DNA of 64,000 nt from IMG/VR virus record IMGVR_UViG_3300036770_008730; one strand, given 5' to 3'. This DNA is from a virus (lineage: Duplodnaviria > Caudoviricetes). Below the pieces are notes generated by a model. That model saw only the letters and a program-made list of their open reading frames with translations. It had not been told where the DNA came from and searched no databases. The translations under genes and the position numbers were made by a program. Positions within the stretch are counted from its first letter, which is position 1. Each line of letters begins with the position of its first letter. Below, piece by piece: positions 709 through 63,090 of the stretch.

Positions 709-1869
709 ATGAAATGGATTAAACTTTTTGAAAGTTTCAAGGAAATTGAAAGTATTGTTTTAATTGGTGGTGGTATATCATCACTTTATGCAGCTTACTT
801 AATTAAAAAAAGATTTCCAAAGATTAAATATACCATTATCGAAAAGTCCGACAAATGTGGTGGGCGTGTTATTCAAGACGAACTAGACGGAGTGGATGTT
901 CCAACCGGTGCTCAATTTACAAGAATTGATAAAGATATATTATTAAATAAACTCTTAAAAGAACTTGAAATCGATTTAGATGTTTATAATTTAGATATTG
1001 ATTTCACATTCAGAAAGTCCGATGTTGATAGTATGATTTCAAAACTTAAAAAGAGTATGTCAAAATTCGATAGAAGTAAAATTACATTTTCCGAATTCGC
1101 AACTGATGTATTGGGTAAAAAAGAATATGAAAAATTTGTTGATATGATGGGTTATAGTGACTATGAAAATTCAGACTTTGAGGACACTATGACTAATTAT
1201 GGATTGGATGATAATTTACCTGGATATAAAGCAGCAGATGTTCCGTGGAATAAGGTTATTAAAAAGTTAATTTCAGAAGTAGGTCAAAAAAATATTGTTT
1301 TGAATACTGAAATCAAATCGATAAAAAATCAAAAGTCTAATTTTATTATTAACAATAAATGGAAGTGTGATGGTGTTATTATTGGAGTTACTATTAACTC
1401 ATTAAGAAAACTTATGGATGATTCTATTTACAATCAAATAGAGTCTCAGAGCTTCTTAAAAGTATTTGCTAAAACTACAGGAATGGAAGAAGTTGACAAA
1501 TATACAGTAGTAAACTCACCACTCAAAAAGGTTTTACCGGTAAAGAAAGATGTTTTTACAATCGCTTTTGCAGATAATAAAGATGCTACATATCTTAAAT
1601 CTAAAGATAAATCTTATTTTGAAAAGAGTTTATCAGAGCAATTTGATTCAGAAGTAAAGATTAAAAAAATGAAAAAATTCTTTTGGGAAGAAGGAACTCA
1701 TTATTTCAAACCACTACAAAAGAAATGGAAATCGAGAAAAGAGTTTTTAAAAGACGCACAACATCCACAAGACAACATTTGGGTAATTGGCGAAGTCGTT
1801 GCTGAAAAACAAGGTTGGGTGGAAGGAGCTTTAAATTCTGTAGAAAATATTTCTTTATTTAAGAAATAA
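709..1869 (+). CDS. FAD-dependent oxidoreductase, flavin amine oxidase family, with N-terminal capsid-targeting-like tag
   Basis: LIGGGISSLYAAY...IIEKSDKCGGR dinucleotide-binding motif; C-terminal WVIGE...GWVEGAL; start moved to MKWIKLFESF at 709. Confidence 0.85.
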   Translation: MKWIKLFESFKEIESIVLIGGGISSLYAAYLIKKRFPKIKYTIIEKSDKCGGRVIQDELDGVDVPTGAQFTRIDKDILLNKLLKELEIDLDVYNLDIDFTFRKSDVDSMISKLKKSMSKFDRSKITFSEFATDVLGKKEYEKFVDMMGYSDYENSDFEDTMTNYGLDDNLPGYKAADVPWNKVIKKLISEVGQKNIVLNTEIKSIKNQKSNFIINNKWKCDGVIIGVTINSLRKLMDDSIYNQIESQSFLKVFAKTTGMEEVDKYTVVNSPLKKVLPVKKDVFTIAFADNKDATYLKSKDKSYFEKSLSEQFDSEVKIKKMKKFFWEEGTHYFKPLQKKWKSRKEFLKDAQHPQDNIWVIGEVVAEKQGWVEGALNSVENISLFKK

Positions 1870-1873
1870 TTAT

Positions 1874-1881
1874 TATCTTTG
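1874..1881 (+). promoter_or_regulatory. Bacteroidota-type -7 promoter element (TAnnTTTG)
   Basis: TATCTTTG 20 nt before ATG 1901. Confidence 0.65.
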
Positions 1882-1900
1882 TTACTTAAAACATAAAATT

Positions 1901-2017
1901 ATGAATAGAAACGACTTTCAGGGTAAGAGAAAAGACCAATTGGAATTTTCTTATAAAATTACAGGAATTTCAATAGTATTATTAGGTTTAACTATTTTAG
2001 CAATTATTGTAGCATGA
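1901..2017 (+). CDS. 38-aa single-TM membrane peptide (not in ORF track)
   Basis: MNRNDFQGKRKDQLEFSYKITGISIVLLGLTILAIIVA; follows a promoter; ATGA overlap with the next gene. Confidence 0.6.
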   Translation: MNRNDFQGKRKDQLEFSYKITGISIVLLGLTILAIIVA

Positions 2018-2586
2018 TAGATAATTTTGAACAAATTTCAGAACTATTGAAATTTGATACTAATGATGATTTCTACCATCTTCAGATTCTTAAGCGAAAA
2101 AAAGAGAATCCCGAAATTGGTTCAAATTCACAAGTAATTAAAACTTATTATGTTTACTCGGTTGATTACCTACATAGTATAAAACCAGAGATTATTAACC
2201 TCTGTGAATTTCATAATGCCAGAGCTTGTATAAATCTAAATGCAAGGTCTTTAGAAAGAGCTGCCTTTCACACTCTTAAAAAAATCACTGATATAATTAT
2301 GAATAAAGATTACAAATCTGTTCATAAAGCATATGACTCTGTTTGTGGAACTTTTTGTACCGACAGAGACAAATCTTGGATAATTGATATTGATGTAAAG
2401 GATTTAAATGAAGTAAGTAGAATTTCTGATATTATTTGTTTGGTTGAACCTGTTGGTAATAAAACCATTTCCGTAGTTGAAACTAAAAATGGATACCACT
2501 TGATTTCTAAACCTTTCAATCTTTCTAAGGTCGATATACATCACGATATACATAAAAACAATCCAACAATTCTTTATATAAAATAA
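2014..2586 (+). CDS. hypothetical phage protein
   Basis: 190 aa; WIIDID and TKNGYHLI motifs suggest a conserved enzyme-like fold. Confidence 0.7.
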   Translation: MIDNFEQISELLKFDTNDDFYHLQILKRKKENPEIGSNSQVIKTYYVYSVDYLHSIKPEIINLCEFHNARACINLNARSLERAAFHTLKKITDIIMNKDYKSVHKAYDSVCGTFCTDRDKSWIIDIDVKDLNEVSRISDIICLVEPVGNKTISVVETKNGYHLISKPFNLSKVDIHHDIHKNNPTILYIK

Positions 2587-2590
2587 CAAT

Positions 2591-2818
2591 ATGGAACAAT
2601 TTACAAACATGATGAATCAATTCATCGAGATGCAACAAAAAACTCAAAACTTTTGGCAAGATGCTTTTAAAACCTCTGGAAAATTAACTGAAGATTACAC
2701 CACCATTATGGATAACTCGATTAAATTCCACCAAGCAGCCATTGAATATCACACTTCTATTGTTAAAATGATGGAGGCTATAAAAGATACTCAGGAAGTT
2801 CTTCTTAGAAAGAAATAG
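2591..2818 (+). CDS. hypothetical helical protein
   Basis: 75 aa, amphipathic Met/Gln-rich. Confidence 0.6.
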   Translation: MEQFTNMMNQFIEMQQKTQNFWQDAFKTSGKLTEDYTTIMDNSIKFHQAAIEYHTSIVKMMEAIKDTQEVLLRKK

Positions 2819-7915: not shown

Positions 7916-7964
7916 TTTTAGAAAAATTAGATTTAATATATACCATTAAATTTAATTTTCTCAA

Positions 7965-9497
7965 ATGATTAAAAGATATTTAGACTTTGTTAATGAATCT
8001 TTAGAACTTCTATTAGAATCAAATGTGGTCTACTCTGACAAACTTAGAACCGTCTTAAATAAGATAGGTGGTCCAATTGCTCAAAAACTAATTGAAATTG
8101 AAAATACTGATTTACCAGTTAGGTCAAACTTTTTTGATATAGTTCCTAAAAAGAACGACTCTATCAACTTTATGCCTGATAGAAAGGCGCAAGAGATTTT
8201 AGCAGATAAAACAGTTAGTGTAAGATTTATTGGATCTGATTCGGGTTGGTTAAAACATTCACCAGCTAATGATGAAATCTTTGCAACACTTGGATATACA
8301 CCACAAGGTGCTAATCCTTATAGACCAAATTCTTCAGACATTGGAACAATAGTATCTAGTTATGTATCACCGACATCCGGTAAGACGTATTGCTATGTTA
8401 ATTTTTCAGACACATCTGGGATCGAATTAGGAAAAGGTGTTTACAATAAAGAAAAGTTAAGAGAGACCACTGACCAAAAGGATAAACTTTGGGGCAAAGG
8501 TCGTCAAGAAATTGGAGTTGGTAGAGGAATTAGAGCTTTACTTTTAACAACTGGTGAAAAGTTTTTAGATAAAGATATAGAAGCATTTGTAAATCTTTAC
8601 AAAGCAACTCTTGATAAGATGAATGATAAATTTTCCTTATTCGAGGTTGTTGATGGAGATGATATATATCATTGGTATCAAAGAGAAAATTACTTTGAGA
8701 GAAAAGGACAGTTAGGTGGTTCTTGTATGGGATCAGCTAGAGAATCTTGGCTTGAGATCTATACCACCAATCCAAATCAAGTAAAATTGATTATTATGAA
8801 ATCCGAACAAGATGATTCTATGATTATAGGTAGAGCTCTTCTTTGGACTCTTAGAGATGGTAAGAAGTTTATGGATAGAGTTTACACTATCAATGATTCT
8901 GATATACAGTTATTTAGAGAATACGCAAAAGAAAATGGATGGTATGCTAAGTATCATAATGGTAGCACATCTAATAATTCATCAATTGCACCTGAAGGTG
9001 GTGTAGTAAATTTAGACCTAACTGTAATTTTAGACAAGAAAGATTACGAACATTTTCCTTATTTAGATACTTTAAAATACTTTACACCAGGAACTGGTAA
9101 GCTAAACAACACTAGTGGTGATTACTTATTGGAAGATACCGGTGGTGATTATGTAAGATGTGATTCTTGTGGTGGAAGTGGAACTCAAGAGTGTTATGAT
9201 TGTGATGGAAGAGGAGAACAAGAGTGTTATGATTGTGATGGTAGCGGAACAGAGGATTGTAATAATTGTGATGGAAATGGAACACAACCTTGCGATAATT
9301 GTGATGGAGAAGGTCAAATAGAAGATGAAGAAGGAAATTCAGAAGATTGTCCAGAGTGTGATGGAGATGGTCATAGAGATTGTGAAGATTGCGATGGTAG
9401 CGGAAAAATGGATTGTTCAACTTGTGATGGTGATGGTAGAAATGAATGTTCGTCTTGTGATGGTCGCGGCGAACATGAATGTCACGAATGTAACTAG
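7965..9497 (+). CDS. tagged 'SCM-GRALLW-DRxY' family protein with C-terminal DnaJ-like zinc-finger repeats
   Basis: MIKRYLDFVNES start; GSCM, GRALLW, MDRVY, PYLDT; nine CxxCxGxG repeats plus a final CxxC. Confidence 0.85.
   Translation: MIKRYLDFVNESLELLLESNVVYSDKLRTVLNKIGGPIAQKLIEIENTDLPVRSNFFDIVPKKNDSINFMPDRKAQEILADKTVSVRFIGSDSGWLKHSPANDEIFATLGYTPQGANPYRPNSSDIGTIVSSYVSPTSGKTYCYVNFSDTSGIELGKGVYNKEKLRETTDQKDKLWGKGRQEIGVGRGIRALLLTTGEKFLDKDIEAFVNLYKATLDKMNDKFSLFEVVDGDDIYHWYQRENYFERKGQLGGSCMGSARESWLEIYTTNPNQVKLIIMKSEQDDSMIIGRALLWTLRDGKKFMDRVYTINDSDIQLFREYAKENGWYAKYHNGSTSNNSSIAPEGGVVNLDLTVILDKKDYEHFPYLDTLKYFTPGTGKLNNTSGDYLLEDTGGDYVRCDSCGGSGTQECYDCDGRGEQECYDCDGSGTEDCNNCDGNGTQPCDNCDGEGQIEDEEGNSEDCPECDGDGHRDCEDCDGSGKMDCSTCDGDGRNECSSCDGRGEHECHECN
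9157..9494 (+). repeat. coding repeat array of CxxCxGxG units (mostly 33-nt period)
   Basis: caagagtgttatgattgtgatgg occurs at 9186 and again at 9219. Confidence 0.8.
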
Positions 9498-9498: not shown

Positions 9499-9780
9499 AT
9501 GAAGTATATCAATTCATATAAAGTATTTGAAAGTCATTATAACAAAGAAGAGTTTATCGATGTTGTTTGTAGAGAACTTTCTAAATATCAAATAACACCA
9601 TTAGAGGTAAAAACCCTATTACAAAAATACGATAATCAAATAACTCAAAGTTTAGAATCTGGAATAAACCCTCAGGATTTTTCTAAACAAATTATTAGTG
9701 ATTTAGAATTAGATAACACCGGAGGTGCTTTATCTGTCAACTTTAATAAACCAAATGTTCCTGAGATAAAATATTTGTAA
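9499..9780 (+). CDS. small tagged hypothetical protein
   Basis: Start moved to MKYINSYKVFES at 9499, just after the upstream stop. Confidence 0.7.
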   Translation: MKYINSYKVFESHYNKEEFIDVVCRELSKYQITPLEVKTLLQKYDNQITQSLESGINPQDFSKQIISDLELDNTGGALSVNFNKPNVPEIKYL

Positions 9781-11123: not shown

Positions 11124-11855
11124 ATGAGAAAAATTAAAAGATATAAGCAGTTTTTTGAAGATTCAACCTCAACAGCTTCTTCAACATCCGGTAGTGGTGA
11201 TATATCAAATCCAACAGTAGGTACAATTCCTGGAATGCCTGGATTACCAGGTAGTGGAGATTTATCTTTTTATCTGAGAAGTAGGAAAAGAAAAAAAGGA
11301 AAAGCTAATCAAGTCACAGATTTAAGAGATTTAGCACCATCAAAGGAGGTTACTCATTTAAAAGAAAGTTTAGATTTCTCTCATAGAATACCGGAATTAA
11401 ATCCTGATATAAAATCAATAGTAAATGAATGTCTATCGGAATTAACTGACCAAGACTTTGAACTAACTATGTTAAAGTACGATAATAATAGAGAATCAGT
11501 TGAAATTGATGAAGATGAATCTGGTGAGTTTATTCAAGAAGAATTAAGAATATCATTACACAAAGTAATTAATATGATATGGACTGGCAATATGAGTTTA
11601 AGAGGTAATTTTAAAGAGAGTATAGAAGAAATAAAAACATATACATTGAGAGGTACAAAAGAACTCAATGATGAAGAGAAAAATCTAATAAATATAGTTG
11701 AGGTAGCTTCATTAAGGTTAAAAGATTTCTTGGAATATCAGAGTGGAGTATTCAACATTTCTTGGATAGTTGCTGGATCAGCAATGCCTTGGAATAGTGA
11801 AAGAACAGTAAATGTAAATGTTGACTTTACACTATTCAATGATTTAAAGATTTAA
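11124..11855 (+). CDS. tagged hypothetical protein
   Basis: MRKIKRYKQFFED start; TAATAAATA at 11111-11119. Confidence 0.7.
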   Translation: MRKIKRYKQFFEDSTSTASSTSGSGDISNPTVGTIPGMPGLPGSGDLSFYLRSRKRKKGKANQVTDLRDLAPSKEVTHLKESLDFSHRIPELNPDIKSIVNECLSELTDQDFELTMLKYDNNRESVEIDEDESGEFIQEELRISLHKVINMIWTGNMSLRGNFKESIEEIKTYTLRGTKELNDEEKNLINIVEVASLRLKDFLEYQSGVFNISWIVAGSAMPWNSERTVNVNVDFTLFNDLKI

Positions 11856-13096: not shown

Positions 13097-13960
13097 ATGA
13101 AATATATTGTGAAGTATCATGATTTTGAGTCCGTTAATGAAGAACTTAATTGGTGGCAAAAATTACTATTAGGTGGTGGAATTATTGGATCAATGTTTGC
13201 CCCAAAGGATGTTTCTGGTCAAACAAAAGATGATAGCAAAAGAGTCACAGTACACACTAAAACAAAATCTGATAGAAGTGCTGAAATACTTCAAAAAAGG
13301 GGTTGGTCTTTAGATAGTACTACTATTGATACATTATGGAAAAAAGTTCAAATAGCAAAACCTGATACAGAACTTGTAACAAGTACTTTACAATTTGACG
13401 ATGCTCAGTTTTTTCCATCTGGTAAATTCACACTTACTCAGGAAATGATGGATGGTATCATTGAAGAGTTAAAAAGAATAGATTCTGAAGGTGGCGTTAT
13501 AACAGATGTCATGATTGAGTCTTCAACTGATAAACAAGGACTTAGTCAAAATCTTCAAAGATCATTATCAAATATGGGTTATACTTCAAATAATCAGGGT
13601 TTGTCACAAGCTAGATGTAATGCAATTAAAAGCTATTTAATGAGCTTACAAATAAGTCCCTCAATTATACAAGAAAATCCTCTTTGGGAACAAGGTACTG
13701 CAACAATCGACCAGTCGGCTAGATATGTGTTTGTGAGGTTCGCTTATATAGTTATTGATCAAAATATCACACCAGGTGAATTTGAATACATACCTCAAAT
13801 TAAAAAAACTTACCATCTATCAAAAGAAAGTGAGTATAAGAAAGTTAAAATAAAAAAGAGTTCGTTTAAATGGGGAACTAAAAAAGTTAGAAAACACGGA
13901 CCAATTAAAAATCGTAAACTAAACCTTAAAGGTGTTGAATGTAGAATGCCTGGTGGATAA
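13097..13960 (+). CDS. tagged protein with signal/TM segment and OmpA-like peptidoglycan-binding domain
   Basis: MKYIVKYHDFESVNEE, hydrophobic WWQKLLLGGGIIGSMFA, FFPSGKFTL, IESSTD, NQGLSQARCNAIKSYL. Confidence 0.7.
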   Translation: MKYIVKYHDFESVNEELNWWQKLLLGGGIIGSMFAPKDVSGQTKDDSKRVTVHTKTKSDRSAEILQKRGWSLDSTTIDTLWKKVQIAKPDTELVTSTLQFDDAQFFPSGKFTLTQEMMDGIIEELKRIDSEGGVITDVMIESSTDKQGLSQNLQRSLSNMGYTSNNQGLSQARCNAIKSYLMSLQISPSIIQENPLWEQGTATIDQSARYVFVRFAYIVIDQNITPGEFEYIPQIKKTYHLSKESEYKKVKIKKSSFKWGTKKVRKHGPIKNRKLNLKGVECRMPGG

Positions 13961-14000: not shown

Positions 14001-15677
14001 ATGTATATAAGGAGATATAGTAACTTTGTAAAAGTTAAAAGAATAAATGAGTCGATTGCCTTATTTGAAGCAGTTCTAAATATTGATAAAAATATTGTAG
14101 ATGTATTAGACCAAATGGTGTCTGATAAAAATGCTGATGAGAAATATAAAATAATTGCTGGCACCATTAAAAGTGGTATAGGTCAAGATTATAAATCAAA
14201 TCGATATGATCAAGTAAGTTTATCATCTGATAATAAAAATTTTAGTGTAAAATCAGGTAAGCAGACAAACACACAGAGCATATCAAAAGTCATTAGAACA
14301 ACTTTAATGGCTATAAATCCTAATTTCTTCAAAGATAATTCACAAATAAAAGATGATACTATTCAGAAATTTGCAGATTATATAATTGGTAAAATGTCTA
14401 TTTCAGCTCCGTCTGGTGATACTGAAACCAAAATAGTTACAGGTGAAGAAATTAAATTCTGGTATGATAGAAAAAACATGAAGAATAAAACAGGTAGCGA
14501 ATTATCTAAATCTTGTATGGCGTCGAATTATAAATTAAATTTCATGGATTTTTATGTTAAAAATAAAAATATTAGTTTAGTTGTTAAATTAGATGCTGAT
14601 AAAAAACTTATAGGTAGAGCTCTACTTTGGAAACTCGAAAGTTCAAGTGAAGGAAATGAATATTTCTTAGACAGACGTTACTGCAATGAGAATTCAGACG
14701 AAGAGTTTCTTTATAATTGGGTTAAGTCACAACCTGGATATTCTAAAACAGGTAAAAGAGAAAGTAAAGCTTTGAGTTCAAATACATCTGATGAAATGGT
14801 TGTAAAACTAGATGTTGCCATTACTAAGACTTATCCGTATGTTGATACGATGAAATATCTTTATATCAAATATGAGAATGGAAATTTAATCAATGAAGGA
14901 TTTTTATCAAATAAAAAAATGGGAGAAGGTAATAAAAATGAATTTGTGGGAATAGTTGAATATCCTGGTCACAAAATTTTTGTTCTTCAAGATACCGAGG
15001 GATGTAGAAAATCACTGGATCCGGAGGATAGACATCTTAACAGCAAAGGTATAACTAAAATTATAACCGGATTGAATAAACAAATTGATGTGAGTGAATA
15101 CGACAAACCACTAGGTGATGCCAAGTCTGTAATTAACTTACTTAATTTTTTCAAGAAATCAGGTGATTTAGCATCAATGTTTGATATAAAGATTACTGAT
15201 GATGATGTTGAGGATGAGGGTTATGAAAAATTTGATAACTCTACACTTGTAAAACCTGGTCTAAATGTAAAAATGGTAAATAGTTATTCAGGAGATAGAG
15301 ACTCGGTCAAATATATGTGTTTAAGAGCATATGATGTGTCTAAGCTAATGGATGATAGAGAATTTGCTGAAATTGTAGAAAAGATTAGCACGATGTATAT
15401 GCTAGAACATAAAAAATTGATGACGGAAATTGACCTAATTATTCTTGGTAGATTAGATGAGGTTAAGTCGAGTGAAGTTTATTACGTCGGCGCTGATAAT
15501 TTACGATACGAAAAAGATAGTGATTCGGATGATTTAGACACAGACAATTTACCAAAACTAACCTCTGAACAAAAAGAAGAAAGAGCAAATGAATTATTAG
15601 TTAAATTATCTAAGAACGATGAAGCTCTTAAATTAAGACAGGAACTAATAAAGTTAGCACCTATGTTAAGAGGTTAA
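14001..15677 (+). CDS. tagged 'SCM-GRALLW-DRxY' family protein (paralog 2)
   Basis: MYIRRYSNFVKVKRINES; KSCM, GRALLW, LDRRY, YPYVDT. Confidence 0.85.
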   Translation: MYIRRYSNFVKVKRINESIALFEAVLNIDKNIVDVLDQMVSDKNADEKYKIIAGTIKSGIGQDYKSNRYDQVSLSSDNKNFSVKSGKQTNTQSISKVIRTTLMAINPNFFKDNSQIKDDTIQKFADYIIGKMSISAPSGDTETKIVTGEEIKFWYDRKNMKNKTGSELSKSCMASNYKLNFMDFYVKNKNISLVVKLDADKKLIGRALLWKLESSSEGNEYFLDRRYCNENSDEEFLYNWVKSQPGYSKTGKRESKALSSNTSDEMVVKLDVAITKTYPYVDTMKYLYIKYENGNLINEGFLSNKKMGEGNKNEFVGIVEYPGHKIFVLQDTEGCRKSLDPEDRHLNSKGITKIITGLNKQIDVSEYDKPLGDAKSVINLLNFFKKSGDLASMFDIKITDDDVEDEGYEKFDNSTLVKPGLNVKMVNSYSGDRDSVKYMCLRAYDVSKLMDDREFAEIVEKISTMYMLEHKKLMTEIDLIILGRLDEVKSSEVYYVGADNLRYEKDSDSDDLDTDNLPKLTSEQKEERANELLVKLSKNDEALKLRQELIKLAPMLRG

Positions 15678-17674: not shown

Positions 17675-18067
17675 CTACAATAGTTTTAATGAAATAAAAA
17701 AAGACTTTATACTTTGTAATTTTAGACCTTCAAGAAATTCATCATCAGAATGAAACTTTCTATCATAACCACTTGAAGTAAAAGAACTTTCTATGGTGTA
17801 GATATAGTTTATATCAAAATCAAATTCATCTGAAATCATTTTGAATGCTCTATCTATCTCATCAGATATTTCTGACCATAAAAAATTTTTTGAATTGCTA
17901 TAACCATATCTTTCTTGTGTTCTTTCATCTACTGGTTTCCAAATTCTTATTGTTAAGGATTCTTCCTCTTCTCCAAAGTCAACTTTAAATCCAGCATCTA
18001 TAATCCAAGCTAAATAACTTTTCAAGTCATCTTTTAACTGTTGTTTTGATTCATTAATTCTTCTCAT
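17675..18067 (-). CDS. tagged hypothetical protein
   Basis: MRRINES start; coupled to the lysozyme gene. Confidence 0.65.
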   Translation of the reverse strand: MRRINESKQQLKDDLKSYLAWIIDAGFKVDFGEEEESLTIRIWKPVDERTQERYGYSNSKNFLWSEISDEIDRAFKMISDEFDFDINYIYTIESSFTSSGYDRKFHSDDEFLEGLKLQSIKSFFISLKLL

Positions 18068-18873
18068 ATTGAATTTAAAAATAATGCACTTTCTTTTTCT
18101 CTTCTATCTGCTAAACCTGGAAAATCATCTGATAGATTAAATTTTTTTATCTTTTCACCGGCTTTCTTAAAATTACCTTTCTTTAATTCTTGCAAGAATT
18201 GACCCTTTCTAAAGATACCAATACCAGAATTATAAGCTATTGAAACCATGGCATCATACATATCCTGGTTTATCATTGTATTATGATCCTTTTCCTCCCA
18301 TTGATGAAAAACTCTTCTAACGCCATCTTCTGCGGTTTTTAAGTCTTGTCTAAGTAATTCTTCTGCCTCTGCTTCTGTAATCTCATCTCCAATTTTGTAT
18401 TTTGAGACATTTACTGACTCAGCATGTCCATATCCTATAGTAATTTTACCATCACCAATTGAATAAGCTCGTAGTTTTAATTTTTCAGAATCTTTTATGT
18501 GATTAATGCCATTTTGTGAAATAGAAAATTCATATCCCTTTTTAAAGTTTGATTTATTGTCTATTGAAATTGCATCTTTTTTTTCTTGATCTTTAGACTG
18601 TTTTTGTAAAACTTCTATTGCGATTTTTTTTGTATCATCATCTACACTTGATGTATTTACGATATTATAAACAGTTGCGGACGCATTAAAAGTAAGCAAT
18701 GTAGCCATAAGATGTTTAAGAACTCTAACTTTAGCTGACTTAGATAAATTTTGTATTTTTTTAGAAACATTATTCCAAATTGAACCGATACTCATTGATT
18801 CATTTACAGAATAGTTGATATAATCAATTATTTGCTGTTCTAAAAAATATTCATAACTTTTAATCTTTTTCAT
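18064..18873 (-). CDS. GH24 phage lysozyme with N-terminal tag and hydrophobic segment
   Basis: HIKDSEKLKLRAYSIGDGKITIGYGH, YDAMVSIAYNSG, GLADRREKE; MKKIKSYEYFLE start; motif at 18879-18888. Confidence 0.85.
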   Translation of the reverse strand: MKKIKSYEYFLEQQIIDYINYSVNESMSIGSIWNNVSKKIQNLSKSAKVRVLKHLMATLLTFNASATVYNIVNTSSVDDDTKKIAIEVLQKQSKDQEKKDAISIDNKSNFKKGYEFSISQNGINHIKDSEKLKLRAYSIGDGKITIGYGHAESVNVSKYKIGDEITEAEAEELLRQDLKTAEDGVRRVFHQWEEKDHNTMINQDMYDAMVSIAYNSGIGIFRKGQFLQELKKGNFKKAGEKIKKFNLSDDFPGLADRREKESALFLNSI

Positions 18874-34370: not shown

Positions 34371-34744
34371 CAATTGATCTAAATGATATACCAATTGGAG
34401 TTGCTGAATCTCAATACCAACTAGATATATTAAAGTCTGGAAAAATTTATAAAGAATTACTTAAAATGAGTGAAAAAAAATATACTTGTATTATAGTTTC
34501 AATGCCGGTTTATAATGTTTTGGTGCACCATGATAAGTTTTATCAGAACCCATTCGATTCAATAGAATCAACTACTGAAGTGGGTATATTCTGTGGATAT
34601 AAAGTTTTTTTGGACCTGACTCTACAAGAAAATTTGATTCAACTCACTTATGATTTTCAAGAGAAGAGAGATAATGTTTTAGATAATCTTCTAGAAAATG
34701 AGGAAATAAAAAAAGACCTTAAAATTAAGGTCTTAAATTGTTAA
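34367..34744 (+). CDS. hypothetical protein, possible gp23 capsid A-domain-like fragment
   Basis: CIIVSMPVYNVL...VGIFCGYKVFLD; subterminal RDNVLDNLL. Confidence 0.5.
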   Translation: MTIDLNDIPIGVAESQYQLDILKSGKIYKELLKMSEKKYTCIIVSMPVYNVLVHHDKFYQNPFDSIESTTEVGIFCGYKVFLDLTLQENLIQLTYDFQEKRDNVLDNLLENEEIKKDLKIKVLNC

Positions 34745-36239: not shown

Positions 36240-36644
36240 TTATATATTAATTTTACAGATGGAAATATTTATATGGTCAAGTTCTTTTCTAATATGATTT
36301 ATTTTCCAACCATAATCTTTCAATCTTAAACTTGATATGTTGATAATATCATTGAATTCATCTGAGTCAACTAATTGCTCTAAATCAAATTCCACCATTC
36401 TTTGACTCATATTTTGGTAATTCTTCTTTCCAATATTTACTGATATATATGGTTCTAAATCAAATTTTAAATTTGAATAATCTGATGACTTTGTTATAAG
36501 TTTTTCTGTGAATTTTACATTTATATAGTAATCTTTTTCTTCTAAATCATAAAACATATCCTTTATATCCTCAGGATAAAGACCATATTTTTCGAGATAA
36601 TCTATCTCTTCATTATTCTCAAAGAATGGTTTTAGATATTTCAT
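36240..36644 (-). CDS. tagged hypothetical protein
   Basis: MKYLKPFFEN start. Confidence 0.7.
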   Translation of the reverse strand: MKYLKPFFENNEEIDYLEKYGLYPEDIKDMFYDLEEKDYYINVKFTEKLITKSSDYSNLKFDLEPYISVNIGKKNYQNMSQRMVEFDLEQLVDSDEFNDIINISSLRLKDYGWKINHIRKELDHINISICKINI

Positions 36645-43294: not shown

Positions 43295-43353
43295 TCAACA
43301 TTTTTTTCAAGACTTAGTATAACTTAATATATATACAAAGATTTGAAAATTTT

Positions 43354-52325: not shown

Positions 52326-53015
52326 ATGAAATATTTAGTAGAGTGGAGAATTTTTGAATCAAAAGAAGATAAAAAACCAAGTAAGGACGTTGAAAATGAA
52401 ATAAAAAGATTCAAATCTAAATGGGGAATTGAACTTGACCAGAATTTCACATTGAGAGAAATAAAGGTCATATCTGAAGGTCTTTCTTATTATAATACTA
52501 AGTTTATAAAAAATCGTATAGATAGAATAATACGAAAAGATATGGGTGCTGTGAAAGGTAGATGGAAAAACACTGAAAAAAAGAAATGGATGTTTTTAAA
52601 TCCAAAAATTTTTAATTTCAAAAAAAGGTGGAAAAATGAAGATGTTGATATTCCGTATGCTGTGTTTACAGTAGTACATGAAACCGCACATTGTATAGAT
52701 TATTTGGAAAGAATTTCCTTTTCTAAGGAATGGCAGTCTTTATCAGGATTTAAAAAATGTGATATTCATGATAAAGTTCCGGATGGATATATTAGATACA
52801 TTGAAAGAAGACCTGGTAGAAAAGGTCCAAAAAAATCTGAGTGGATTCATAAAGAAGATTCAAACTTTTGTAGAAAATATAGTTCAAAAAATCCAAGAGA
52901 AGATTTTGCTGATTCACTAGCATTTACAATTTTAGGACTTTCTGAAAAAATGAAAGGTGAAGATGGTAAAGAAAAACTTAAAATAATTAAAAAATTATTA
53001 AAAAGGGCTGAGTAG
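52326..53015 (+). CDS. tagged zinc metallopeptidase (HExxH zincin)
   Basis: Start moved to MKYLVEWRIFES; VVHETAHCID and YSSKNPREDFADS. Confidence 0.75.
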   Translation: MKYLVEWRIFESKEDKKPSKDVENEIKRFKSKWGIELDQNFTLREIKVISEGLSYYNTKFIKNRIDRIIRKDMGAVKGRWKNTEKKKWMFLNPKIFNFKKRWKNEDVDIPYAVFTVVHETAHCIDYLERISFSKEWQSLSGFKKCDIHDKVPDGYIRYIERRPGRKGPKKSEWIHKEDSNFCRKYSSKNPREDFADSLAFTILGLSEKMKGEDGKEKLKIIKKLLKRAE

Positions 53016-53026: not shown

Positions 53027-53713
53027 CTAAAAATCTGTAAGATCAACAGCCTGAACAGTTTCTTTATTAAATAAAAAAACCTCAATTCCTCTTAATCCAC
53101 TAATCCATTGTTCTCTACGCTGACTTGGTAATTCTAATACGTTTTGGATAGCAATTGATATTTTTTCTTCAGGAGTATTATCATATATCACTGCATTCAT
53201 AGTTGATGCACCCAAATGCGTAAGAATTTTAATTTTGAAATTTGTTTTATATATCTTTAGTTTGTGATAGACATCTATAACATCCTGTATCAACTCATCG
53301 GTGTTTTGATATTTTAATCTTATATAGCTCTCATAGTAATATCCACCATCCCAAGACGGATAATCTTCAATATCTTCAGTTCTATCTGTAAATGGTAATA
53401 GACAATCCTTCATATCTGAGTAATCTATTTTTAATGAATAAGCATTGAAAAAGGATTCTTGTGATCCATCATCTACCATATCTTGATAGTATTGAACATA
53501 GTCTTCTGTAATCTTATCAATTAATTCATCTAAAGCTACCTTTGTTTCGGAACTAAAAATACAATTCCCAGTCATAGGGTCATCTGTTCTATTAGTTAAA
53601 ATGTGTTCTATGAGTGGATTGAATATTTGGTTCCAGTCTTCCGCATTAACAAGTGGGTGTTTAGTCCACCTTTCTTTTTTCTTTTCTAAGATAAGTTTAG
53701 AGAATTTCTTCAT
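53027..53713 (-). CDS. hypothetical protein with tag-like N-terminus
   Basis: MKKFSKLILE; motif at 53718-53727. Confidence 0.7.
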   Translation of the reverse strand: MKKFSKLILEKKKERWTKHPLVNAEDWNQIFNPLIEHILTNRTDDPMTGNCIFSSETKVALDELIDKITEDYVQYYQDMVDDGSQESFFNAYSLKIDYSDMKDCLLPFTDRTEDIEDYPSWDGGYYYESYIRLKYQNTDELIQDVIDVYHKLKIYKTNFKIKILTHLGASTMNAVIYDNTPEEKISIAIQNVLELPSQRREQWISGLRGIEVFLFNKETVQAVDLTDF

Positions 53714-54968: not shown

Positions 54969-55973
54969 ATGATAATTAAAAAATATACAGACTTCTTAAA
55001 AGAGGAATATTTACAAGGAAATTTCAAAGATTCCACAGGTTCTGATTATAAAGTATATCAGTTACTATACTACGCTTTTGATTGGGATGATAATATTCTT
55101 AGAATGCCAACTGAGATAATACTTGTTAATCAAGATGGAAATGAGGTTGGTATGTCCACAGAGGATTTTGCAAAATATAGAGATATTATAGGAAAAAGTC
55201 AATTTGAATATAACGGTCAAACTATCACCGGATATGCCAATGACGCCTTTAGATACTTTAGAGATGACGCCGATCCAGATATCTTTACTAAAGATGTTGA
55301 AAAAGCACTAAATGAAAAAAGATTTGCTAAGTCTTATAATGATTTTATTGAGTGTCTAACAACCGGGTCTCTTTTTGCAATCATCACTGCTCGTGGTCAT
55401 GAGCCATTACCTATGAGAAAAGGTATAGAGTTTATGATTAACAAATTAACACCTACTCAAAAAACAAGCATGATAGACCATCTAAAAATGTTCTCTCATC
55501 TATTTGATGAGCCAATTAAACCTGATGATATTTTGATAAAAGAGTATCTTGATAAGTGTGAATATATTGGAGTATCTTCACCATCAAGAGGAGGAAAGCC
55601 TGATAATCCTGAAAAGGCAAAAGAAGATGCTTTCTTTGGTTTTGTCGAAAAATGCAATACTTTTTCAAAAGAACTTGAAAACAAATTCAATAGTGATCCA
55701 GAGACTCTTAAAAGAGGGGAAAGGTGGAAAGTTATTGCTAAAATAGGATTCTCTGATGATGATGCAAAAAACATCAAACATTTAGATGATGTTGTGAGAG
55801 AATTGAAAAATGAAACATACTCGAATGTAAAAGAATTTTACATGAAAGATACTGGTAAAGAAGATTTACAAACAAATGTTTATACAAAATATCAAGAGGG
55901 TGAACCTAATCCAACATCAGAATCAGTTGTTAGAAAATTTGACAGATTCTTAAAAAAAAAGCTAACTCGTTAA
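54969..55973 (+). CDS. tagged HAD-superfamily phosphatase-like protein
   Basis: MIIKKYTDFLKEE; AFDWDDNI, IITARGH, GFSDDD. Confidence 0.75.
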   Translation: MIIKKYTDFLKEEYLQGNFKDSTGSDYKVYQLLYYAFDWDDNILRMPTEIILVNQDGNEVGMSTEDFAKYRDIIGKSQFEYNGQTITGYANDAFRYFRDDADPDIFTKDVEKALNEKRFAKSYNDFIECLTTGSLFAIITARGHEPLPMRKGIEFMINKLTPTQKTSMIDHLKMFSHLFDEPIKPDDILIKEYLDKCEYIGVSSPSRGGKPDNPEKAKEDAFFGFVEKCNTFSKELENKFNSDPETLKRGERWKVIAKIGFSDDDAKNIKHLDDVVRELKNETYSNVKEFYMKDTGKEDLQTNVYTKYQEGEPNPTSESVVRKFDRFLKKKLTR

Positions 55974-56413: not shown

Positions 56414-58315
56414 ATGAAAGTGTTTAAATATTTTGATTTTTTATTAGAAGCAACTAGAGTTCAAAAAACAATGAGACTTCACTATTCAGAGAAGTTTAGA
56501 AGTCTTCTACAAAAGATGCAAAAAAATAATGATTTCGCATCACTACTTTTAGCAGCCGAAGACTCAAATCAAATCTCAGATATCTACACATTAATTGATG
56601 TGACTGATAAAAATGATATGATTTCTTGCATACAAGTAAATCGTATTTTAAGATCGAATCCCGATACTAAAACCTATACAAATGATGATGTTTATTTTTT
56701 GAATAGATCAATCACCAACGATGAAAAAAATGAGTTTTGGAAGAATGGCAGAACTAATATGGGAATTGGAAAATGGATGAGAAGGGTTGTTGTTGATTTA
56801 TATAAATCACCATCAGTCCTAAATGATAAAAAACTGGAAGATTTTGTCAATCTCTATAAATCTACTTTTGATGGTATTAATAATGTTAAAGAAGAAAGAT
56901 TTCAACTAGTAGAAGGTGACGAAATTAGAAAATGGTATCATGCAGATAACTATTTTGAACTAAAAGGTCAATTAGGAAATTCTTGCATGAGATATACAAG
57001 ATGTCAAGATTACTTAGATATTTATGTTAAAAATCCAGAAGTTTGCAAATTGTTAATTTACAAAAGTGAAGAAGACCCTGAAAAGATTATTGGACGAGCT
57101 CTTATCTGGAATATTAAACCAACACCGAAAGGTATTACAAAATACATGGATAGAATTTATACCATCGCTGATTCTGATAGGTTACTATTTCAAGATTGGG
57201 CTACTGAAAATGGCGTAAATTATGGATACTCTGGTGTCAAATATATTCAACTTAATAATGTTAATTTCAACAAATATCCATATATGGACACATTTATCTA
57301 TCTAAATAAAGAAACAAAGTCTTTAACAAATGACGATGGTGTTTGGCCTGGACAAAGCTATATAAAAATACAAGACACAAACGGTGGATATACTGACGAT
57401 GATAGCGTTTGGTCAGAATATCACGGTGATTATATATCAAGAGAAAATGCTGTTTATTGTGACTACAGTGACGATTGGATTCACATTGATGATGCTAATT
57501 ATCTTGACTATAAGGATGTATATGTTGGTCCTAATGTAGATACCGCTTATTCGGAATATCACGGAGAGACCTTTTTAACGGATGATGTTGTTTGGTCAGA
57601 ATGTATGAATGATAATCTTTATCCAGAATATTCAAATGTTGTTGAAATGAAAACAAGTTACCAAGGTGATACAGATTGGGTTATTAGCACTCGAACAGAT
57701 CTTTGTTTGAAAGTTGGTGATGATTATTATAGTAGAAAAGATTATATAAAAGATCCATATAGTGATGAATATCATTTCTTAGATGAAAAAGAAATGAAAA
57801 CTTATGAAGATAGATTCAAAGAAAGTTGGGGTGATAAACTTTATGATAAGTTACTAAAAGACATTATTCCTGAAGGAATGAGAAATGAAGAATTCAATAT
57901 TTTAAGAGAATGGGTAGTTTCTGAAATTAAAAAGGATATATTAGAGGAAAACTATGATATACATTTAATTTCTGAGATTGAAAATAATGAAATATTTAGA
58001 CGAAACATCAATTTCTTCTATGCTGCACAACGGGATAAAGAAATAAAACCTACTGCAAAAGATTTGGTGCCGTTAATTATTGCCTGTAAAATAAAACCAG
58101 TGAGTGTGCGAGGATATGTTAGTACTGGATTATATAAAGAATTACACACAATGGCTACAAGTATGATAAATCCCGAAGATAAAGATTTAGTAAAGAAGTA
58201 TAAATTTTATGCAGAAAATAGATTTATCTCAATCATCAATAGATTGGCCTTATCTATAAGTTCCGAATCACTTGGATTAGATTTGTATAAGAAGTTCTTA
58301 TTTATTAATAGTTAA
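56414..58315 (+). CDS. tagged 'SCM-GRALIW-DRxY' family protein (paralog 3) with acidic aromatic repeats
   Basis: MKVFKYFDFLLEA; NSCM, GRALIW, MDRIY, YPYMDT; WSEYHG / YSEYHG / WSEC repeats. Confidence 0.85.
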   Translation: MKVFKYFDFLLEATRVQKTMRLHYSEKFRSLLQKMQKNNDFASLLLAAEDSNQISDIYTLIDVTDKNDMISCIQVNRILRSNPDTKTYTNDDVYFLNRSITNDEKNEFWKNGRTNMGIGKWMRRVVVDLYKSPSVLNDKKLEDFVNLYKSTFDGINNVKEERFQLVEGDEIRKWYHADNYFELKGQLGNSCMRYTRCQDYLDIYVKNPEVCKLLIYKSEEDPEKIIGRALIWNIKPTPKGITKYMDRIYTIADSDRLLFQDWATENGVNYGYSGVKYIQLNNVNFNKYPYMDTFIYLNKETKSLTNDDGVWPGQSYIKIQDTNGGYTDDDSVWSEYHGDYISRENAVYCDYSDDWIHIDDANYLDYKDVYVGPNVDTAYSEYHGETFLTDDVVWSECMNDNLYPEYSNVVEMKTSYQGDTDWVISTRTDLCLKVGDDYYSRKDYIKDPYSDEYHFLDEKEMKTYEDRFKESWGDKLYDKLLKDIIPEGMRNEEFNILREWVVSEIKKDILEENYDIHLISEIENNEIFRRNINFFYAAQRDKEIKPTAKDLVPLIIACKIKPVSVRGYVSTGLYKELHTMATSMINPEDKDLVKKYKFYAENRFISIINRLALSISSESLGLDLYKKFLFINS

Positions 58316-60739: not shown

Positions 60740-61252
60740 TTATTTTTTATACTTTTGAAATTTTCTTGTATTTCTGTAGCTCTTAGATTCTTTTTGCATT
60801 GTCATCTCTAAGTCCTCAACTGCCTGTTGGTCAGACACTTCTCTCTCGTCTGAAATTTCTTCTGTAGATTCACTTGCTAATAAATAGTCAGCAACTTCTT
60901 GAGCGGTTTTAAACTTCTTTTTATCAACATGAAATACACCTTCACCGGTCTCGTCATTAAATGTCTCAGATGGAAATAGTATTGTTTTTTCTTTGTAAAT
61001 AACTGAATTATTTGACACTGTTGATCCTGGTAATAATTCTGATAAAGTATTTAAATTGTCAGAATAAACATCACCTCCTTCTTGTTCTGTTCCTAACTCC
61101 TCATCTTCAATTGGACCTTCTGCTTTTGGTAATTCACCTTCCAATTGTTCAATCTCAACATCTTCTTCGGATGACATAGGAGCAACATTTGCCGGTGGAA
61201 CCATATCTTCATTAATTTTATTCTTTACGAATTGATTATATCTTTTAATCAT
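60740..61252 (-). CDS. tagged acidic hypothetical protein
   Basis: MIKRYNQFVKNKINED start at 61252. Confidence 0.7.
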   Translation of the reverse strand: MIKRYNQFVKNKINEDMVPPANVAPMSSEEDVEIEQLEGELPKAEGPIEDEELGTEQEGGDVYSDNLNTLSELLPGSTVSNNSVIYKEKTILFPSETFNDETGEGVFHVDKKKFKTAQEVADYLLASESTEEISDEREVSDQQAVEDLEMTMQKESKSYRNTRKFQKYKK

Positions 61253-61285
61253 TTTCAATAGTTATTTTTTTGTATATATAAAATT

Positions 61286-61783
61286 TTAATTTTCAGTTTT
61301 TCCACTCAATTCACCAACTACATAATCTAAGAAGGAATCAAGTTCATATTCTAAACCATTACAAAACTCGAAAACATCATATTCATATCCTTCTTCATCT
61401 TTAGTTAGTGAATAGAAATCAGGAACGACTTGACCATTGTCATATGAAATTATACATCCTTCAAGTCTTCCCTCTAATTTTTTACCATTTGGCCAAGTTA
61501 GGTCTGGAACATAAAGAACTCCTTTGTAATGTTTTTCATCACCGAAATCTTCTATCTCACTTAGTTCAAATTTGAAATAACCGTGATCATCTTCAAAAAC
61601 AGATTCCATTTCTTTTTTTGCTAAATTAACATGATGTAATTCCTGTTGACCTGATTTATGAGAGTCTAAAAATTCTTTTTCCTCTTTTGATAAAGATGAC
61701 ATACCAAACTTGGAAATCTTATCAAGTAAGTCATCCAATCGTTGATTGGAAGTGTATCCTTCATATCTCATTAAATGTTTCAT
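61286..61783 (-). CDS. tagged hypothetical protein with 'LDDLLDKISKFGMSSLS' motif
   Basis: MKHLMRYEGY start at 61783. Confidence 0.7.
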   Translation of the reverse strand: MKHLMRYEGYTSNQRLDDLLDKISKFGMSSLSKEEKEFLDSHKSGQQELHHVNLAKKEMESVFEDDHGYFKFELSEIEDFGDEKHYKGVLYVPDLTWPNGKKLEGRLEGCIISYDNGQVVPDFYSLTKDEEGYEYDVFEFCNGLEYELDSFLDYVVGELSGKTEN

Positions 61784-61822
61784 AACTTTCACATAGTATA
61801 TATTCTGGTTTTAAATAGATAA

Positions 61823-62170
61823 TTAGTGATATTCATTGGTATCACTGAACATATCATTTCCATATTCTCTGATTTGTTTTTTTACAACATCTAACATCGT
61901 ATTTAGACCAACGCCTTCATATTGATATATCCCCACAAAATCATGAGCCATCTCTTCGGTATCAAATGGTACGAAATCTTGTTTTTGTAGAATAGAAACT
62001 AATTTTCTATCTCTATTTTGGTTTTTTATTTCATTAATAAAAGATTCAATAAGAAAAACAATAAATCCACCTGAACCGTCTTTTGGGTGATTTCTTATCA
62101 TATCAAAATCAATACCATGATAATAGTAACAAAGTCTGTTATTTATTATTTCTTTTTCAATTAATGTCAT
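61823..62170 (-). CDS. hypothetical protein
   Basis: Internal RDRKLVSIL motif. Confidence 0.6.
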   Translation of the reverse strand: MTLIEKEIINNRLCYYYHGIDFDMIRNHPKDGSGGFIVFLIESFINEIKNQNRDRKLVSILQKQDFVPFDTEEMAHDFVGIYQYEGVGLNTMLDVVKKQIREYGNDMFSDTNEYH

Positions 62171-62399
62171 CGAAAATATCGTCTAATTTTTGATCTCTAA
62201 TTTCTGATTTATAAACTTCTAGTATTTTATTCTTGAAAAGTTCATCTTCATCAAACCTATCTTTGAATTCTAAAAAATAAGAATTAGATATTTTAAGAAG
62301 AGCCATCTTCGCCCTGGTCAATTTTTCTCCAAACTGATTTGAGCATAGTCTATTTTCTAAATAAGATAGATAAAGTGGATACAATTGGTCATTTTTCAT
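62157..62399 (-). CDS. hypothetical protein with C-terminal RDQKLDDIF motif
   Basis: 80 aa ORF. Confidence 0.6.
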   Translation of the reverse strand: MKNDQLYPLYLSYLENRLCSNQFGEKLTRAKMALLKISNSYFLEFKDRFDEDELFKNKILEVYKSEIRDQKLDDIFDDIN

Positions 62400-62430
62400 A
62401 ATTTATATATCCACATTTAATATATACATT

Positions 62431-63090
62431 ATGATATTAAAATTTAAACTTTTTGAAGCTCAACAAAGACATTACGGTAAAGGAACTTTATTCTCTGATA
62501 ATCACAGAATACCAAATCTACCAGAACAGTGTGCAATGATTGATATTGATGGTGTATCACTATCAGGAAATCAAATAAATGCTATAATCGAGGATAAATT
62601 CAAATTCGATTCGAAAGCATTAGGTAATCCTTTAGAAGGAGAAGGAACTTGGCAAAGAAAAAAATTAGTAGATATCTCCAAAACACTGAGATGTCCTTTA
62701 ATTTTGAATGAGTTATCAACAAAAACTTATATCAAGTTTGATAATAATTTACAACCAGAAAAAATAGATTCACTTGATGAATACTCAGTTATTGAAACTG
62801 CTAATAGAGTATTTGTAGAAATTAGATTTGGTAGACCAAAGGCAATAATGTTTAGAATTGAGGATATAAAAGTTGATGATTTGCCAAATTCGGATTTATT
62901 TAAAGTCGCTTTACAACTATCTCAGAAATTAAATTGTGAACTCTACATCATAAGTGATGACTATAAACCTGGAAAAATATATATCAGAAAATACTTTTCA
63001 AAAGATGGTCAAAAGTCACCAACTTATGTAATAGATTGCGAAAATCCAATAACATGGATTACTGTTTACAAGCAATTAAATCTACTTTAA
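62431..63090 (+). CDS. tagged hypothetical protein
   Basis: MILKFKLFEA; TTAATATATA at 62417-62426. Confidence 0.7.
   Translation: MILKFKLFEAQQRHYGKGTLFSDNHRIPNLPEQCAMIDIDGVSLSGNQINAIIEDKFKFDSKALGNPLEGEGTWQRKKLVDISKTLRCPLILNELSTKTYIKFDNNLQPEKIDSLDEYSVIETANRVFVEIRFGRPKAIMFRIEDIKVDDLPNSDLFKVALQLSQKLNCELYIISDDYKPGKIYIRKYFSKDGQKSPTYVIDCENPITWITVYKQLNLL

Follow-up and report, generated by a model that had tools for sequence, protein, structure and literature searches.

Background

Mullaney and Black reportedly described the capsid targeting sequence of the bacteriophage T4 internal proteins in 1996. This T4 tag (MKTYQEFIAE; PMC8442874), about ten residues at the N-terminus, puts internal or fused foreign proteins in the scaffolding core of the head, and the prohead protease gp21 removes it after Glu (PMC9958956, PMC5694885, PMC8442874). 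Related propeptides on IPI, Alt and gp24 are also removed by gp21, and the T4 record holds such sites at L-T-E65 in gp23, L-R-E10 in gp24 and F-D-E10 in Alt. Here, we analyse a 64 kilobase (kb) stretch of viral DNA, the IMG/VR record IMGVR_UViG_3300036770_008730 (hereafter, the window), in which about a fifth of the genes start with a T4-like N-terminal tag, from which it is probable that the phage packs, and possible that it injects, many enzymes that can be predicted from sequence.

The window has 27-34% G+C (about 30% for the genome), with genes on both strands that include a gp5-like baseplate hub, a UvsW-like helicase and an endolysin-type lysozyme. By protein, its nearest relatives are uncultured genomes of 634-735 kb (LR745206, LR756502, LR756504 and LR756501/3) and several IMG/VR contigs, among them G003, whose hub protein is 56% identical to that of the window. 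The large relatives belong to the Mahaphage clade of Al-Shayeb et al., for which Bacteroidetes are the predicted host (PMC7162821), and the source thus appears to be an uncultivated giant phage of Bacteroidota. The baseplate region had no megablast match in the phage collection, and neither a transfer RNA (tRNA) nor an Rfam family was found in the window.

Other phages also load proteins into the head. In phage P1, head-internal proteins such as the Dar antirestriction proteins are packed in the head, delivered with the DNA and the first to act in the host; loading follows a hierarchy of specific proteins with no portable decapeptide, a description that sets it apart from the tag examined here. 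Capsid targeting in P1 has been discussed (PMC9024508). The phiKZ-like phages are likewise giant phages, with tens of different head proteins, many of which have N-terminal propeptides that a gp21-related protease cuts after Glu (PMC5694885, PMC7411985, PMC10052503); the ejection or inner-body proteins of phiKZ and SPN3US are processed by gp175/gp245 (PMC5694885, PMC7411985, PMC10052503). Mature SPN3US gp47 begins with a membrane segment (PMC5694885), as is predicted here for an OmpA-like protein, whereas the phiKZ/SPN3US propeptides are mostly 80-130 residues long and share no short tag (PMC5694885). Paralogous head-protein families are common to both groups, which differ in lineage, host phylum, head genes and extent, with 8 to about 20 proteins processed there and a fifth of the proteome tagged here. 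The phiKZ-type cleavage motif is (S/A/G)-x-Glu. Compared by description, the tags of the window are not long, protein-specific propeptides of the phiKZ/SPN3US type, being 9-17 residues long and shared across families, with a hydrophobic P3. Full-text literature searches returned no paper joining huge or metagenomic phages with capsid targeting, and the jumbo-phage review literature examined did not mention such a tag.

A shared N-terminal tag on unrelated proteins

The original prediction had listed 19 N-termini that carry a capsid-targeting-like tag. All were found, without discrepancy, at their coordinates and with the start codons as quoted, and represent 22% of the window genes (19/88; Table 1, in which genes are named by their start). 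The starts at 28064 and 52326 lie within longer open reading frames (ORFs) and were accepted because a late promoter motif sits inside the longer ORF, 4-5 nucleotides (nt) upstream, and orthologs begin at the same place. The tag combines basic residues, aromatic residues at positions i and i+3, and then (I/L/V/F)-x-Glu. It occurs in two registers, MK(Y/H)(I/L)K.F..F and MIK(R/K)Y..F(I/V).E, is closed by [IVL]-N-E in seven of the 19 cases, and often contains an additional (I/V)-N-E site that makes it bipartite. Beyond residue 25, mutual similarity was restricted to the products of 7965, 14001 and 56414, which are paralogs, while the other 16 protein bodies are mutually unrelated. The claim that the domains behind the tag are mostly unrelated therefore holds, and the tags are all present, while the count of about 19 unrelated proteins becomes 17 families with two weak members, 18067 (MRRINES, with only the cleavage-type motif and a matrix score at background level) and 61783 (no hydrophobic-x-Glu).

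A loose pattern (M, up to five residues, an aromatic residue, two residues, an aromatic residue or Leu, up to three residues, Glu) matched 13 of the 88 gene starts, compared with 3.3 +/- 1.7 among shuffled N-termini (maximum 10) and 3.1% of internal positions. The frequency is thus not explained by a composition rich in Lys and Phe, the outcome that the original prediction had named as fatal to it, as no shuffle of 2000 reached 13. As a safeguard against circularity, a 10-column matrix was trained blind on 242 kb of LR756502, with six proteins that have a window homolog removed, by an expectation-maximization (EM) motif search of residues 2-20 of the remaining 283 N-termini (300 random seeds), of which the best-scoring seeds converge on [KHY][IL][KR]K[FY][NE]EF.E. 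With this matrix, 12 of the 88 N-termini of the window outscored 99% of internal segments, where 0.9 were expected, with the top score in the window at 11124 (17.1 bits). Eleven of the 12 belong to the earlier list; the twelfth, start 11064, is probably a false positive because it has a host-type promoter and a membrane helix. Pattern and matrix thus both return the enrichment that had been proposed as a check, and a short N-terminal peptide is common to 17 otherwise unrelated families. Being gapless, the matrix misses the second register, which is recovered by the heptad test described below. Two other EM runs were dropped: one that included the initiator Met collapsed onto 'starts with M', and one trained on loci orthologous to the window was dominated by the conserved N-termini of the hub and its neighbours and was replaced by the LR756502 non-homologs.

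A gp21-type site within the first 10-20 or so residues, scored as [ILVFM]-x-E within residues 2-18, was present in 18 of the 19 tagged proteins and 15 of the 69 untagged ones (22%; Fisher p = 6e-9). In LR756502, the tagged share amounts to 12-27% of the genes, depending on the criterion used.

Late promoter motifs of the tagged genes

The window contains 24 copies of the motif TAATATATA, where 3.4 would be expected, and nearly all of them immediately precede a gene of the same orientation. Scored as AATATATA, the motif lies within 45 nt upstream of 12 of the 19 tagged genes and 14 of the 68 untagged genes (p = 0.001). Five of the remaining seven tagged genes are operon-internal, behind a tagged or late gene, and two (11124 and 61252) have only a variant motif, a distribution that bears out the claim of a shared upstream element; for 11124 the exact motif was not found within 45 nt upstream, where only a TTAATATTTA-like variant occurs. 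The motif also precedes the untagged baseplate hub gene (Table 1) and its untagged neighbours in the baseplate region (38565-38573, 45255-45263 and 50118-50126 on the - strand), and, in LR756502, the portal, protease-scaffold and capsid genes. Since hub and baseplate genes carry it, TAATATATA would represent the promoter class of structural (late) genes, and, judged by this motif, the tagged genes are predicted to be late and co-expressed with the head genes.

Leader length varies within this class. The leaders of the baseplate genes in the window and of the head genes in relatives are A-rich and 20-26 nt long, while the motif (T)AATATATA ends 4-5 nt before the ATG in nine tagged genes and 9 nt before it in 56414 (positions in Table 1), with further motifs close to the ATG of other genes at 4364-4372, 26298-26306, 38038-38046 and 56399-56407. 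Given this spacing, the messenger RNAs (mRNAs) are probably leaderless or nearly so. The Bacteroidota promoter TAnnTTTG was found at none of the 19 tagged genes and six of the 68 untagged genes, a difference that is not significant (p = 0.33). The products of two of these six, 11064 and 16213, have a hydrophobic N-terminal segment, and several other window genes encode Flavobacteria-style signal peptides; the promoter suggests a separate class of genes dependent on the host RNA polymerase. The cytoplasmic, housekeeping-type genes are untagged (PurA, PurN, RpiB-SiaC, FKBP, the class-II synthetase-like protein, and the GAF-PAS kinase with its receiver).

Head module and scaffold repeats in relatives

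The head module was read in relatives, namely LR756502, G003, LR756501, LR756504 and 75 protease ORFs from 80 metagenome contigs. The metagenome search with a relative's protease returned these 80 relatives, none from the sample known to hold the window's genome. In LR756502, the protease gene lies between genes for a gp20 portal (Portal_T4, 1e-57) and a gp23 capsid protein (Gp23, 4e-28). The proteases of G003 and LR756502 combine a weak Peptidase_S77 match with the signature GxFxE....NxNxRxY, and their tblastn matches include annotated prohead proteases of T4-like cyanophages and Escherichia coli jumbo phages; the S77 assignment rests on this signature and these matches. A gp20/gp21/gp23-type head module thus appears to be present in the lineage.

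The protease is fused to a long coiled-coil, scaffold-like region of about 11 tandem 14-residue repeats (11 in LR756502), YSEY(I/L/V)AE.LD.NI., each with one (I/L/V)-A-E site, and behind the repeats come an acidic linker and a C-terminal helical domain (L014:20001-22100 of LR756502; L013, which is G003; L022, L023 and L028-L107). Fusion and repeats recur in LR756501, LR756504 and the 75 metagenome ORFs (80 loci); the latter have a median of 11 repeats, most often of the form YSEYIAE or YSEYLAE. The 242 kb of LR756502 contain 22 matches to the strict heptad [FYW].[EDQ][FY][ILV].E: nine at N-termini (at positions 5-7, each in a different protein), 11 within the scaffold, and two elsewhere in 71,500 residues, where a rough composition-based estimate is also about 2. 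The window has three N-terminal heptads (YLDFVNE, YTDFLKE and YFDFLLE) and one internal heptad. In the capsid protein, which had no phmmer match in the PDB when a relative's sequence was used, the N-terminal 43 residues are nearly invariant across 49 lineages and end in ...EYAEFHSINE/N (the slash follows the Glu of the predicted site), after which the sequence diverges. The scaffold repeat is identical in all tag-bearing lineages examined, so that covariation of tag and scaffold across lineages is uninformative.

Conservation and modularity of the tag

In IMG/VR relatives, orthologs with 30-60% identity differ in the residues of the tag but retain its motif class. For the flavoenzyme encoded at 709, almost all of the 120 database orthologs (51-90% identical) begin M(K/R)(W/Y)(I/L)K(L/F)FE.F, and an alignment of 36 sequences has no variation at E8 and at least 90% conservation at M1, K5, F7 and F10 (mean column identity, 66%). 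The tag is the best-conserved segment of this family, though it lies outside the predicted fold: residues 1-10 of the AlphaFold2 model have a predicted local distance difference test (pLDDT) score of 42, all below 50, against a whole-model mean of 92.8, and solved homologs in the PDB begin at the Rossmann strand, query residue 14-15. In the lysozyme family, the tag is present in 85 of 120 homologs, tagged members have a further S(I/V)NE(S/G) site, with hardly any variation, some 25-32 residues from the N-terminus, and some homologs of the catalytic domain have no leader (e.g., P0202, 149 residues). Conserved tag positions are encoded by synonymous codons and show F/Y/W, K/R and I/L/V swaps. 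Ortholog conservation, the limits of the model and solved structures, the lysozymes without a leader and the codon swaps together indicate a modular conserved linear signal that lies outside the fold and does not simply follow from base composition. Over residues 2-12, tagged proteins have a helical hydrophobic moment of 0.47 and untagged ones 0.24 (p = 2e-4); the T4 tag has 0.45. As far as comparison of genes and proteins reaches, these results show that the tag is a modular linear signal under selection at the peptide level, carried by 17 unrelated families encoded by late-promoter genes.

Probable capsid loading and its alternatives

The window's tag has much in common with that of T4. Both systems place a short N-terminal peptide on otherwise unrelated proteins, with an aromatic pair at i/i+3 followed by (I/L/V)-x-Glu, and MKTYQEFIAE itself fits the strict heptad; a similar hydrophobic moment and, by promoter motif, predicted late expression are also shared, and relatives of the window have a gp20/gp21/gp23-type head module. 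T4 tags a handful of proteins, whereas 19 of 88 genes are tagged in the window and 12-27% in LR756502; the tag here is more variable, has two registers and is often bipartite; and the relatives' protease is fused to a repeat-bearing scaffold, while gp21 and gp22 of T4 are encoded by separate genes. We regard it as probable, on sequence evidence, that the shared N-terminus is a T4-type capsid-targeting propeptide in an enlarged version of the T4 system. All the sequence-level tests that were run agree with the much larger, T4-equivalent loading system of the original prediction, in which presence in virions, cleavage after Glu and injection remain the parts that we infer.

Under this scheme, the tag would dock on the protease-scaffold core during prohead assembly, probably in the form of an amphipathic helix similar both to a single repeat of the scaffold and to the last part of the capsid-protein propeptide. 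The activated protease would then cut the tag after Glu, as for the scaffold and the capsid propeptide, and the freed enzymes would remain in the head. Candidate head cargo in or just past the window includes the L-amino-acid-oxidase-like flavoenzyme, the GH24 lysozyme, and the OmpA-like, HAD-like, SET and PPK2 proteins. It is less certain that the cargo leaves the head with the DNA and acts in the Bacteroidota envelope or cytoplasm at the start of infection; the step from packaged protein to injected effector is less secure in general, drawing on T4 IPI and Alt and on the SPN3US ejection proteins, and by the same analogy injection of the lysozyme and of the OmpA-like protein with its membrane segment is plausible. 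A bolder version, which we consider possible but rather doubtful, would have the Mahaphages load between about 10% and 25% of their proteome, or around a hundred different enzymes, each with one peptide that imitates the 14-residue repeat of the protease-scaffold fusion, such that cargo co-assembles with the scaffold, is freed by the same cut, and infection begins with a delivery of enzymes predictable from sequence (lysozyme, oxidase, SET, PPK2, phosphatases and peptidases).

Several observations weigh against capsid loading. Packaging, cleavage and ejection are all deduced for a lineage known from its sequence, the protease gene of its genome lies outside the window, and the relatives' Pfam matches to S77 score 17-20 bits against a curated cut-off of 27. 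Within T4, the conserved tag has been reported for IPII and IPIII only (PMC9958956), and the internal proteins are small and basic, while the candidate cargo here is 93-633 residues long and mostly acidic (median isoelectric point, 4.9), though isoelectric point does not separate tagged from untagged proteins. Mimicry of a scaffold repeat by the tag has no T4 precedent, as no copy of the strict heptad was found in T4 gp22, nor was one in gp67 or gp68, and AlphaFold2 gave no helix for the flavoenzyme tag. Hydrophobic-x-Glu is not specific by itself, occurring in 27% of internal 17-mers. The tagged shares (12-27% in LR756502, 22% in the window) would amount to an unprecedented number of head proteins, and many tags stand at the 5' end of apparently leaderless mRNAs, where a second role in translation is possible.

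The same peptide could instead serve as a substrate or regulatory propeptide for the prohead protease or another late protease, so that proteins are processed, inactivated or degraded at a set time in the cytoplasm with no entry into the head, which strikes us as rather unlikely. The best-supported feature, (I/L/V/F)-x-Glu, matches the scaffold and capsid-propeptide sites, and a tagged share of 12-27% is less surprising if the tag directs processing than if it marks cargo; however, T4-family proteases are activated inside the closed prohead (PMC9958956), so that substrates outside it would stay uncut, and the conserved basic and aromatic part is unneeded for cleavage alone and resembles the scaffold repeat, which suggests docking. 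Docking to a different partner, whether a membrane, a host factor, a phage chaperone or a compartment for replication or assembly, would localise late proteins outside the capsid and would suit an amphipathic peptide conserved yet outside the fold, and very diverse cargo of which some acts on the envelope (lysozyme, OmpA-like). We find this distinctly unlikely, as it leaves unexplained the protease motif at the tag end in 18 of 19 proteins, the near-confinement of the heptad otherwise to the protease-scaffold, and the fit of the T4 tag.

A signal mainly at the nucleic-acid level, providing the A/U-rich unstructured start that late, mostly leaderless mRNAs would need to begin transcription or translation in a host that does not use Shine-Dalgarno sequences, is very improbable, even though the late motif 4-5 nt before the ATG of nine tagged genes implies leaderless or near-leaderless mRNAs and the AT-only codons of MK(Y/H)(I/L)K resemble the promoter itself. 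Tags are also found on genes with 18-22 nt leaders (7965 and 13097) and on operon-internal genes (9499, 14001 and 54969), while five leaderless late genes are untagged (387, 4359, 26292, 38032 and 56394); the conserved positions tolerate F/Y/W, K/R (AGA or CGT) and I/L/V swaps and synonymous codons, and AT-richness leaves the Glu and the aromatic pair unexplained, with shuffles of the same composition lacking the motif. Chance, from a composition rich in Lys, Phe, Ile and Asn combined with selection of examples, might be entertained for a genome of 30% G+C in which MK- starts are common in untagged genes, but its probability is practically nil: the enrichment over shuffled N-termini (pattern, 13 vs 3.3 +/- 1.7) and with an independent matrix (12 vs 0.9 expected) rules it out, and orthologs keep the motif.

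Tagged genes and other features of the window

Searches of NCBIfam, PHROGs and Pfam left about half of the tagged cargo with no function assigned. The flavoenzyme at 709 matches Pfam NAD_binding_8 and Amino_oxidase and L-amino-acid oxidases by Foldseek (TM 0.78-0.81), and the lysozyme at 18873 matches Phage_lysozyme (2e-26, residues 128-261), with PDB lysozymes aligning from residue 117. Matches fell slightly under the curated cut-off for OmpA at 13097 (1.3e-5), and below cut-off for DHH at 36236 (0.003) and Peptidase_Mx1 at 52326 (0.0017); the product of 61783 matches DUF6576 (1.4e-8), and the public gene call starts four codons later, at MRYEGY. At 54969, an Atlas feature and structure matches point to viral HAD/DUF2608 clusters.

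Ortholog starts illustrate how the letters vary: MRIKKFNRFELITEG and MRIKKFNNWVNINEE for 36236; MKHLKNFQLFES, MKHLKHFSIFES and MKHLKKFEIFES for 52326, against MKYLVEWRIFES in the window; MVKKFNQYISES and MVKKFGQFIKES for 54969; and M(R/K)FLS(N/S)YLDFIFEA for 56414. Orthologs of 53713 are 36-48% identical overall and retain MKKFSKLILE(S/T). A public contig with an exact match carries the genome some 10 kb beyond the window end and encodes more tagged proteins, among them proteins with a SET domain (MKYVKLFEEF) and with DUF5824 (MEHLLSFEDLFE) and a PPK2 kinase (MKILDYLKFINEE).

Table 1. Tagged genes and other mapped features of the window. A slash in a tag follows the Glu of the predicted cleavage site; aa, amino acids.
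Feature	Start	Coordinates	Strand	Tag or motif	Upstream motif and context
L-amino-acid/amine-oxidase-like flavoenzyme, 386 aa	709	709..1869	+	MKWIKLFE/SF	late motif 695-703, 5 nt before ATG
Tagged gene, 510 aa, multi-copy paralog family	7965	7965..9497	+	MIKRYLDFVNE/S; strict heptad YLDFVNE	late motif 7934-7942
Tagged gene, 93 aa	9499	9499..9780	+	MKYINSYKVFE/S	operon-internal, directly 3' of 7965 gene
Tagged gene, 243 aa	11124	11124..11855	+	MRKIKRYKQFFE/D, then Ser/Thr/Gly-rich linker	
OmpA-like peptidoglycan-binding protein, 287 aa	13097	13097..13960	+	MKYIVKYHDFESVNE/E, then hydrophobic segment	late motif 13070-13078
Tagged gene, 558 aa, paralog of 7965/56414	14001	14001..15677	+	MYIRRYSNFVKVKRINE/S	operon-internal after 13097
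Weakly tagged gene, 130 aa	18067	17675..18067	-	MRRINE/S, I-N-E site only	start overlaps lysozyme stop
GH24 phage lysozyme, 269 aa, 116-residue N-terminal extension	18873	18064..18873	-	bipartite leader MKKIKSYEYFLE/Q ... SVNE/S	late motif 18879-18887
Tagged gene, 220 aa	28064	27402..28064	-	MKHLKKFFE/S	late motif 28070-28078, inside longer ORF
Tagged gene, 196 aa	33644	33054..33644	-	MRFIKLFE/DF	late motif 33649-33657, 4 nt before ATG
Tagged gene, 503 aa, weakly DHH-phosphoesterase-like	36236	34725..36236	-	MKIRNFNNFMPLNE/E	late motif 36241-36249
Tagged gene, 134 aa	36644	36240..36644	-	MKYLKPFFE/N	operon-internal, downstream of 36641-38032 (late motif 38038-38046)
Tagged gene, 229 aa, weakly zinc-metallopeptidase-like	52326	52326..53015	+	MKYLVEWRIFE/S	late motif 52314-52321
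Tagged gene, 228 aa	53713	53027..53713	-	MKKFSKLILE/K	late motif 53718-53726
Tagged gene, 334 aa, HAD-phosphatase-like (lead only)	54969	54969..55973	+	MIIKKYTDFLKE/E; strict heptad YTDFLKE	follows 54518-54967 (late motif 54490-54498)
Tagged gene, 633 aa, paralog of 7965/14001	56414	56414..58315	+	MKVFKYFDFLLE/A	late motif 56396-56404
Tagged gene, 170 aa	61252	60740..61252	-	MIKRYNQFVKNKINE/D	variant motif TTATATATA
Weakly tagged gene, 165 aa, DUF6576	61783	61286..61783	-	MKHLMRYEGY, no hydrophobic-x-Glu nearby	start uncertain
Tagged gene, 219 aa	62431	62431..63090	+	MILKFKLFE/A	late motif 62418-62426, 4 nt before ATG
Late promoter motif of the hub gene		43325..43333	+	TAATATATA	20 nt upstream of untagged gp5-like baseplate hub gene 43354-45210
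Bacteroidota-type (-7) motifs				TAnnTTTG	few bases upstream of starts 5972, 11064, 16213, 21833, 26429, 58563
Two-component-like pair		23708-26292	-		membrane GAF-PAS histidine kinase (718 aa, late-type promoter), then receiver-domain protein (154 aa)

The paralog family of 7965, 14001 and 56414 (510-633 residues) has 9-15 copies per Mahaphage genome, a copy number that recalls the paralogous inner-body proteins of phiKZ. Its central domain is also present in 72-kb Cellulophaga phages, and the 7965 copy has weak, below-cut-off Pfam matches near its C-terminus to DnaJ-type zinc-finger-like families (BSD2_CRD and Anti-TRAP). Next to 54969, the small ORF 56039-56191 matches the C-terminal 44 residues of 54969 orthologs, and the gene therefore seems to be split or frameshifted, either in the genome or in the assembly.

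Among the other genes, the kinase/receiver pair (Table 1) resembles a phage-carried two-component system. Auxiliary metabolic and translation-related genes (16851-17654, 20261-21589, 22490-23035, 30531-31367 and 32378-32794) comprise an RpiB-SiaC-family fusion, an adenylosuccinate synthetase, a PurN-like formyltransferase, a truncated class-II aminoacyl-tRNA-synthetase-like protein (278 residues) and an FKBP prolyl isomerase. Orthologs of the helicase (50148-51758, - strand) are 536 residues long, by which its start in the window is the GTG at 51758 and not the first ATG; in one relative (L001:363-3218), the helicase gene is split in two halves around an additional ORF that may encode an intein or a homing endonuclease. 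Two more paralog pairs, both untagged, are 29% identical (2830-3540 and 3649-4359, - strand) and 45% identical (7190-7915 and 53737-54519), and the true start of 53737-54519 is probably 42 codons downstream of the longest-ORF start, as in its orthologs.

Implications for megaphage biology

The novelty would lie in a greatly expanded variant of a known T4 mechanism, for which the observation is confirmed and the interpretation partly supported. If the interpretation is true, the T4 protein-packaging tag extends to a much larger natural system, with a concrete model of cargo loading in which the tag resembles a scaffold repeat. Most megaphage genes have no known function or cultured host, and a simple sequence rule would list the proteins carried in the heads of the largest known phages. 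As the first phage proteins that the host cell would meet, the tagged proteins would be prime candidates for roles in host take-over and anti-defence.

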